A stretch of 60,098 nucleotides of DNA, the filler included, from Platydemus manokwari (Eukaryota): the NCBI GenBank assembly GCA_037951405.1. It is 6 parts of 6 records of this genome, joined end to end, with 100 filler letters (N's around TTAATTAATTAA, not from the genome) between each part and the next. Parts side by side here need not be neighbours in the genome. Positions count along the whole stretch, not along the records: positions 9,629 to 18,411 come from JBBMOY011350871.1; 5 more parts are not named here. The stretch is one strand, 5' to 3'. Numbering within the stretch: position 1 is the stretch's first letter; the number at the start of each line of letters is the position of its first letter. Of this stretch, positions 9,948 through 10,647 are shown piece by piece. A model generated the notes under the pieces. The model had not been told where the DNA came from. It worked only from the letters and a program-made list of their open reading frames with translations, and searched no databases. Both the position numbers and the translations under genes were made by a program.

Positions 9948-10647
9948 ATGGCGGAGAAATATTTTTGTTGTATTTGTAATAAAGAAATTTTCAAATCTAA
10001 TAAATCAAAAAATGAAAGAATTAAATACGATACCAATAAAGGTAAAAATAGGATTAAAAGTAAGAAATTAAAGGGTTTTGAGCAATTTCAAATAATACAT
10101 TTTTACGAGGGAATTTCATTTTAAAAGTTTAAGTCCATTAAATAGAACAAGTTCTGTACATAATTATATCGATCAAATCTGGATCAGAGCGTTGATTCAA
10201 AGTCAATGCTAATACTGTTGAAATTTCATATCAACAATGCAACACCTTCAAATTGTGGGAAACTCCTAAAATCTTCATCTAATAATTCAATTGAGAAATT
10301 TTTTGAAGGATCTCAAGTAATTTTTAGTCAACCGAAGCAGGAAATATGGGCAATCCGCATCAAGTCTCCTAAAACTAGAATAATTTTTCAGAGACTAAGC
10401 GTTGGTGAATAATGAGATGTTAATCATTGCTAATGATTGCTTAAGATATAGTTCGAACTAATATTGAAAAATATTAGTATTTTCCAGGAACAAATCTTCA
10501 GGAACATATACAAAATTATGATGAAATTATTAAAAATTATAATGAAAATTGAAAATTACCTATTCCACCAATTTCTAAAGAAGAATATCAACTTGTAAAT
10601 AAAATGGATGAAGCTGCAATGTATGATGATGTATATTATTTTTCAAA
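9948..10647 (+). pseudogene. Viral phospholipase A2 (parvovirus VP1u-like, Polinton/adintovirus type) with an N-terminal CxxC motif, split by a group I intron
   Basis: Exon 1 (9948-10173): MAEKYFCCICNKEIFKSNKSK..., then by frameshift EFHFKSLSPLNRTSSVHNYID. Exon 2 (from 10484): PGTNLQEHIQNY...*KLPIPP...YQLVNKMDEAAMYDDVYY. Joined, this gives HNYI[G>D]PGTNL...[P>L]VNKMDEAAMY[H>D]DVYY, the PLA2 Ca-loop plus HDxxY catalytic motif, each deviation one substitution from consensus. Confidence 0.8.
10174..10483 (+). ncRNA. Group I self-splicing intron (IC1-like), degenerate
   Basis: P AAATTGTGGGAA 10250-10261; Q AATCCGCATC 10352-10361; R TTCAGAGACTA 10387-10397; S AAGATATAGTTC 10443-10454. P2 GCGTTGATT/AGTCAATGC 10189-10209; P2.1 TGTTGA/TCAACA 10216-10236; P3 CACCTTC/GTTGGTG; P9 CTAATATT-GAAA-AATATTAG 10458-10477. 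IGS TCTGGATC 10178-10185 is complementary to the ligated junction GAT|CCAGG. The 5' exon ends in U, and removal restores the PLA2 frame. Confidence 0.9.

Follow-up and report, generated by a model that had tools for sequence, protein, structure and literature searches.

A group I intron with nuclease-bearing sister copies in the PLA2-integrase gene of Polintons in Platydemus manokwari

We report a catalytically dead group I intron of IC1 type in the PLA2-integrase gene of a decayed Polinton of Platydemus manokwari (assembly GCA_037951405.1). It lies in positions 9629-18411 of the window (the whole 60,098-nucleotide stretch of DNA that was analysed), which are the start of contig C1350871. Probably the intron family homed between elements and was also carried vertically for long periods, and the lineage of the window copy lost the nuclease gene. 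Spread by homing is made likely by an HNH-type nuclease gene inside the intron of sister copies. The features of the locus are as follows.

9746..9920, minus strand: fragment of a divergent accessory gene with a RING-like N-terminus and repeats (tblastn and blastn to L011 and L312; gene order of sister copies)
9948..10173, plus strand: exon 1 remnant, with start codon, CxxC zinc-finger-like N-terminus, a shortened and frame-broken linker and the first half of the PLA2 YxG|PG loop (translation; blastn to sister copies)
10174..10483, plus strand: group I intron, IC1 type, 310 nt, without ORF, catalytically damaged (Rfam; 35-copy alignment; helix-by-helix counts; empty alleles)
10220..10232, plus strand: loop L2.1, 13 nt in the window copy, where sister copies hold a 630-740-nt insert with an HNH-type ORF
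10389..10452, plus strand: conserved R and S core elements, P7, 3' strand of P3, and P8
10458..10477, plus strand: P9 hairpin with GAAA loop, missing from a 'short' variant
10484..10648, plus strand: exon 2 remnant, PLA2-like, in which one stop is present and the catalytic His codon is altered, ended by a deletion (identity to sister copies; PF08398 on sister copies)
10645..10817, plus strand: fragment of the rve integrase core (blastn 70-71% to the integrase DNA of L016 and L312; tblastn E 0.002)

Class, boundaries and state of the intron

The initial annotation had placed a 310-nt group I intron between the Gly and Pro codons of a PLA2 YxGPG motif, and both the class and the insertion point held. 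Rfam in E-value mode matched RF00028 at 10185-10476 with 49.1 bits (E 5.6e-11), just under the gathering score of 50 bits, at which there was no match anywhere in the window. The genome as a whole gave 28 matches, 23 of them over the cut-off, with sister copies scoring 50-88 bits. All 28 lie at the PLA2 site (27 by sequence, one by coordinates), and no second intron site in the Polinton was found among them. Because 52 of 126 classified loci in the same genome read straight through YxG|PG without an intron, both boundaries are fixed at 10174-10483, in agreement with the initial annotation.

The intron belongs to subgroup IC1, judged by its layout against motifs that we take to mark this subgroup, namely P2, P2.1, P5abc with an A-rich bulge, a GAAA L5b loop and an 11-nt receptor in P6. 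Its layout comprises P1, P2, P2.1 and P3-P9, with a full P5abc, the GAAA loop and the 11-nt receptor; the exact L5b context is present in 25 and the exact receptor in 14 of 35 decayed copies. The same features (P2, P2.1, P5abc, GAAA loop, receptor) make up the IC1 scaffold that it shares with Tetrahymena-type introns. A conserved P3-P8 core with P, Q, R and S elements identifies it as group I. Over 93 pairs of the 35-copy alignment, 89.9% of cells are paired, against 33-48% when the alignment is slid. P1 is 82% paired, and the guide pairs with both exons, the P10 pairing having been read by eye from the alignment. Clear covariation occurs at a single P8 pair (GC in 16 copies, AU in 9); the structure as a whole showed no excess over shuffles (229/500), and single-strand folding z-scores were modest (-1.7 and -1.8).

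Among the 35 copies, the U.G pair at the 5' splice site is kept in 27, the G-C guanosine site in P7 in 27 and the terminal G in 26, all three occurring together in 17. The window copy has lost the splice-site wobble pair, the guanosine-site pair and the terminal G, and its tetraloop receptor is deleted; it is catalytically dead, with 70 of 84 modelled pairs intact. The P9 hairpin is wholly missing in 26 of 60 intron copies (alignment columns 446-476), and since this variant is found both with and without the nuclease gene, it must have multiplied. In active elements the ribozyme would have spliced itself out and restored the reading frame. RNA contigs from one run have joints that match empty DNA alleles and are therefore uninformative on splicing.

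The host gene and its Polinton

A parvovirus-type PLA2, as first proposed, was confirmed in one of three natural intron-less copies, where PF08398 (Phospholip_A2_4) scored 24.9 bits against a cut-off of 23.9; the other two fell below it (22.5 and 17.4 bits). Sister copies show the PLA2 signature of YxGPG loop, HDxxY and downstream Asp, and the exon 2 remnant is 64% identical to a sister exon 2 over 55 residues. Matches to AAV VP1 were weak (E 0.86), and fold predictions were too poor for use (pLDDT 36 and 47).

The host gene is an in-frame fusion of zinc finger, PLA2 and integrase. PLA2 and the rve integrase share one frame in 30 of 52 decayed copies, with a stop-free linker in four, and share a frame also in the database protein P0004; upstream, a single open frame joins zinc finger and junction in two sister copies, and the two keep a common frame in 8 of 20, although zinc-finger Pfam matches are weak. 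The gene is therefore not the stand-alone entry enzyme of the initial annotation. Fusion to PLA2 means that the integrase, too, would have needed intron splicing. In 36 of 37 copies, an in-frame stop follows the intron start by no more than 30 codons, so that unspliced RNA would yield neither PLA2 nor integrase. Variants shared among PLA2 copies favour third codon positions (13/4/28 by position) and singletons do not (72/81/57), which points to selection in active lineages and neutral decay after integration.

The PLA2 part of sister copies ends, within the PLA2-integrase linker, in a GxG-type motif that resembles adenain cleavage sites, and it may be that the fusion is a polyprotein cut in the virion. 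None of 32 candidates was a longer protein with a PLA2 region, which is weak evidence; a search for proteins of near length returned eight unnamed ENA fragments, and relatives of the PLA2 query in viral contigs were not found.

The element is a Polinton/Maverick, adintovirus-like, by genes linked across overlapping fragments rather than on one contig, in agreement with the initial annotation. Linked fragments carry pPolB, an A32 ATPase, a double-jelly-roll capsid gene and a protease-like gene (adenain-type by motif only); PF03175, PF04665 and PF21738 scored over cut-off, and rve (E 9e-5) under it. In sister copies the accessory gene sits between the PLA2-integrase gene and the packaging ATPase; its RING match is weak and under cut-off.

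Decay of the window copy has reached intron and exons alike, with divergences of 0.25 in the intron, 0.22 in exon 2 and 0.20 in exon 1, consistent with an intron that was present before integration, as had been supposed. It is the most diverged of 35 copies in both intron and exon 2 (medians 0.145 and 0.134); across copies, intron and exon divergence are uncorrelated (Spearman 0.08). Of the damage listed at the outset, the stop and the changed Gly and His codons were found as described. Near 10648, what had been taken for a frameshift proved to be a loss of about 600 nt, by which the PLA2 part has come to adjoin integrase-core sequence.

Element copies are AT-rich like other stretches (23-32% GC) and flanked by retroelements, and the many decayed, AT-rich, retroelement-flanked copies point to a location in the main genome. 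None of 48 ORFs scanned on contigs with a copy was an animal protein-coding gene; they gave only retroelement, HTH-transposase-like and viral glycoprotein matches and one JAB-domain match. The contig of the window copy also holds a broken Ty3/Gypsy-type integrase remnant (17557-18275, minus strand; rve and Integrase_H2C2), and a contig shared with another Polinton copy holds a fragment of an endogenous RNA-virus glycoprotein (L312:8527-9006; Monjiviricetes_fusion, E 7e-14). Elsewhere in the window, 35549-36712 (minus strand) encodes the proteasome subunit RPT5 in 387 codons without an intron. It scores 737 bits against the top PDB chains, which are mammalian, and 673 and 603 bits against the next groups, plant and yeast, and so places the genome among animals. 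On the 24-kb contig C444443 (L165, L166), whose composition is unlike that of the PLA2-intron Polinton family, the genes for pPolB and ATPase and the protease-like and capsid-like genes have long open frames; the contig may represent a distinct virus, intact by appearance, that infects the animal or what it preys on. Four full-length COX1 genes (L363-L366) were present, one fitting the flatworm/echinoderm mitochondrial code, as would be expected of a free-living flatworm, and three the invertebrate code. Of these three, two look molluscan and one arthropod to us, and the three together suggest prey DNA in the assembly.

Nuclease gene, allele states and junction footprint

When an ORF from inside the intron of a giant-virus capsid gene was searched against the Platydemus genome, it matched 121 places, and one class of these matches sits inside L2.1 of the PLA2-site intron in sister copies. 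That the intron encodes no homing endonuclease, as first reported, is true of the window copy and not of these sisters, so the window copy is probably a nuclease-free derivative. Since an HNH-type gene is encoded in cis, neither a trans-acting nuclease nor reverse splicing is required for mobility, against the accompanying claim. Nuclease DNA was matched in 40 contigs (40 scored of 82 candidates), and in all 33 loci examined it adjoins intron sequence (5' side in 23, 3' side in 24, both in 14). The ORF has about 225 codons, two CxxC..CxxC units and a DH..N..N motif; every copy seen is broken, the longest open piece being 164 of the ~225 codons. PHROG matches (endonuclease, endonuclease VII, HNH; E 7e-11 to 3e-5) cover the N-half only, with none for the C-half, and neither a Pfam HNH nor a PDB match was found for the protein. 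Its top Atlas match was 'HNH endonuclease family protein' (0.96), and relatives numbered 23,500 at E 0.001. Shared variants by codon position are 5/7/5 in the N-half, without third-position excess, and 2/4/9 in the C-half. The nuclease forms a lineage of its own whose sister group the tree does not resolve; the best database match, P0011 (49%, 227 aa, same layout), has no support as its sister.

L2.1 loops without the ORF differ among copies and are short (1-50 nt); the insert starts and ends with a similar 7-nt word, and both features together suggest repeated deletion of the nuclease gene. Of 24 copies tried, 16 were readable ahead of the nuclease start codon, and 14 of these have a pyrimidine-AG acceptor-like site 7-10 nt upstream of that codon (for example L303:800-812, L333, L347). 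The site is possibly a cis- or trans-splice acceptor for nuclease expression and, if used, would solve the translation of a nuclease that lies behind the in-frame stop of the intron.

The search for further nucleases proposed at the outset also yielded free-standing HNH genes of two lineages, apart from the intron nuclease and placed convergently behind pPolB in related elements (L323-L330). The intron could have been mobilised or protected in trans by such a gene, through collaborative homing, or by a restriction-like enzyme cutting GGNCC at the Gly-Pro codons. GGNCC is indeed rare in element DNA (observed/expected 0.19 over copies; one recurring site against seven of CCNGG in 11.3 kb) and occurs at 31 of 52 empty junctions. 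Yet the depletion is weak at the level of sites (one against about 4-5 expected, estimated p ~0.06), a TdeIII-family gene was not found in the genome, and a nuclease is present in cis, so that we regard action in trans as very unlikely; a search for the Eco47II family was blank in control genomes as well as here and is hence uninformative.

The distribution of alleles bears on the preferred reading of homing together with vertical carriage. An exon-2 search of the genome gave 1107 candidates, of which 150 were scored and 115 taken into the census; with further loci added, 126 were classified, 21 rows having been relabelled by hand. These divide into 60 with intron, 52 empty and 14 unclear. The 115 comprise 52 empty alleles, 6 with both intron and nuclease, 28 that lack the ORF and show both ends, 15 whose 5' end is unseen and 14 unclear, so that empty, nuclease-bearing and nuclease-free alleles coexist in one genome. 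Intron alleles share one uniform junction tract, from about -15 to +8, on varied flanks. U occupies position -1 in 34 of 37 intron alleles and 8 of 52 empty ones (p 2e-13), and from -12 to -8, outside P1, variants occur in none of 37 intron and 12 of 52 empty alleles (p 0.001). Intron alleles are present in four of five flank clusters; intron presence is at most weakly associated with 56 exon polymorphisms (r2 <=0.13), while sites on opposite sides of the junction reach r2 0.63 with each other.

Taken with the nuclease, this short footprint is what homing would leave. In the scheme that we favour, two elements would have shared a cell: the nuclease of one would have cut the intron-less junction of the other, whose repair would have brought in the intron together with a short flanking tract; the nuclease gene would then have been deleted more than once, ORF-less introns passed on vertically, and copies integrated and decayed neutrally. 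Loss of the intron, through replacement of a patch by empty alleles, would produce an equally short footprint, however, so the direction is not fixed by it.

Much of the inheritance was nonetheless vertical. In 35 intron copies, once per-copy age is removed, the distances between introns follow those between flanks (Mantel r 0.39, 0 of 2000 permutations), more strongly than exon 1 follows exon 2 in the same copies (r 0.16), which gives no support to recent sweeping. The exon tree has 66 of 118 branches open. One exon-2 haplotype is associated with the P9-less variant (r2 0.67), 42 of 60 intron-bearing copies have an intron-bearing nearest neighbour, and exon linkage is weak overall (mean r2 0.04-0.09). 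The tracking of flanks and these last observations would suit one ancient nuclease-bearing insertion followed by vertical descent alone, in which intron-less relatives gave rise to empty alleles by recombination or gene conversion, and the nuclease either was a passenger or had another target. We consider that account unlikely. It leaves unexplained why the nuclease ORF is kept in both P9 variants and why the variation that empty alleles show at -12 to -8, beyond P1, is missing from intron alleles. Moreover, precise loss would leave U at -1, and its presence in so few empty alleles indicates that most of them are not products of such loss.

The initial annotation had also raised the idea that the intron gates a membrane-lytic protein; extended to the integrating protein, this would make it a domesticated splicing gate. 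Unspliced RNA does stop early in the intron, and ORF-less and P9-less forms did multiply. But 52 of 101 resolved alleles, about half, lack the intron on the same flank haplotypes, no regulatory module was seen, and a selfish nuclease is present, so that a gate is hardly credible. The intron would rather be a selfish element at a site that the host gene cannot freely change, following a Goddard-Burt cycle, with both PLA2 and integrase dependent on its splicing.

Related introns and known systems

Introns outside Platydemus were sought with a pattern made from the R and S elements of the window intron, and no rDNA introns were identified in the resulting set. The pattern matched at least 130 viral and at least 121 metagenome stretches, and seven stretches in five prokaryote-labelled genome contigs. 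The matches listed comprise 101 distinct cores, of which the best 25 are 60-71% identical over the P3-P7 core, 33 lie beside a giant-virus capsid gene and none beside PLA2. Such introns (L173-L302, L367-L494) are abundant in giant-virus capsid genes and, by eye, also occur in RNA polymerase and ubiquitin genes. A P2.1 pattern found no match in metagenome contigs, and the giant-virus capsid family gave no match in the Platydemus genome, in a search that was blank in its control too. The intron may have come from giant viruses.

Bodo saltans virus has group I introns with HNH and GIY-YIG nucleases (PMC5871332), and these, those of related giant viruses and the IMG/VR capsid-gene introns share with the Platydemus intron the R/S core, the P5abc layout and the nuclease superfamily, as well as the occurrence of HNH-bearing and ORF-less forms in essential protein genes, as far as these sources describe them. 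Giant viruses are nevertheless cytoplasmic and have protist hosts, whereas the Platydemus intron belongs to a small integrating animal Polinton, has its nuclease in L2.1 and targets a PLA2 calcium loop. A close published parallel in size and setting is offered by Polinton-like viruses of Rhodomonas lacustris, Paulinella micropora and Desmodesmus armatus, whose RF00028 introns of 309-376 bp lie within or beside a short gene that precedes the one for the capsid, and are described as restricted to few protist groups (PMC12220804). There, too, a group I intron of similar size occupies a protein gene of an integrated element, but that text annotates no intron nuclease, while Platydemus presents an animal host, a PLA2-integrase gene, an HNH-type ORF in L2.1 and three allele states.

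According to one review (PMC3679873), group I introns of the nucleus occur exclusively in the rRNA genes of microbial eukaryotes, where their nucleases are of His-Cys type and lie in P1, P2, P6, P8 or P9. Tetrahymena-type rDNA IC1 introns, as treated there, share with ours the scaffold, the coexistence of nuclease-bearing and all-ribozyme forms and the Goddard-Burt cycle; they differ in that the Platydemus intron lies in a protein gene on an animal chromosome, with an HNH-type ORF in P2.1. Chlorovirus introns, too, are of group I and lie in the protein genes of eukaryotic DNA viruses, but they are described as group IB and belong to viruses of algae rather than to elements integrated in an animal genome (PMC7019647). 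Adintovirus PLA2X resembles the host gene in being a parvovirus-type PLA2 domain in an animal Polinton (PMC8502044). In that source PLA2 is followed by a C-terminal pX-like domain, and the words 'fused' and 'fusion' are absent from its text; the Platydemus PLA2 is instead in frame with a zinc finger and an rve integrase, an arrangement different from that described for PLA2X. Homing nucleases or PLA2 in Polintons are also treated in PMC11296320, PMC10748475, PMC3671162 and bioRxiv 10.64898/2026.10.13.758929, whose texts, as far as seen, describe no such intron in an animal element. We found no published report of a homing group I intron in animal chromosomes; supplements (Tables S11-S12 of PMC12220804, genome maps of PMC8502044), Repbase entries and subscription journals could hold one.

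A nuclease-bearing group I intron in a protein gene, many times fixed in animal chromosomes, extends both the nuclear and the viral range of these introns. To our knowledge, viral group I introns have so far come from phages, giant viruses and protist Polinton-like viruses. Also unusual is the fusion of PLA2 with integrase. Since three states of the homing cycle are fossilised in one genome, the cycle can be measured copy by copy, and the family offers a test case for natural splicing of mRNA by a group I ribozyme in animal cells. A wider reading, which we hold tentatively, is that an animal DNA virus lineage took a complete homing intron from the giant-virus pool and that the full cycle of invasion, nuclease loss and escape ran in animal cells, with Polinton integration dependent on ribozyme splicing of an mRNA and the nuclease perhaps expressed through a splice acceptor. 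If so, competing Polintons would have co-infected animal cells, with past nucleocytovirus contact. The intron would then testify indirectly to encounters between animal Polinton genomes during co-infection, and to a sharing of mobile elements between these Polintons and giant viruses.
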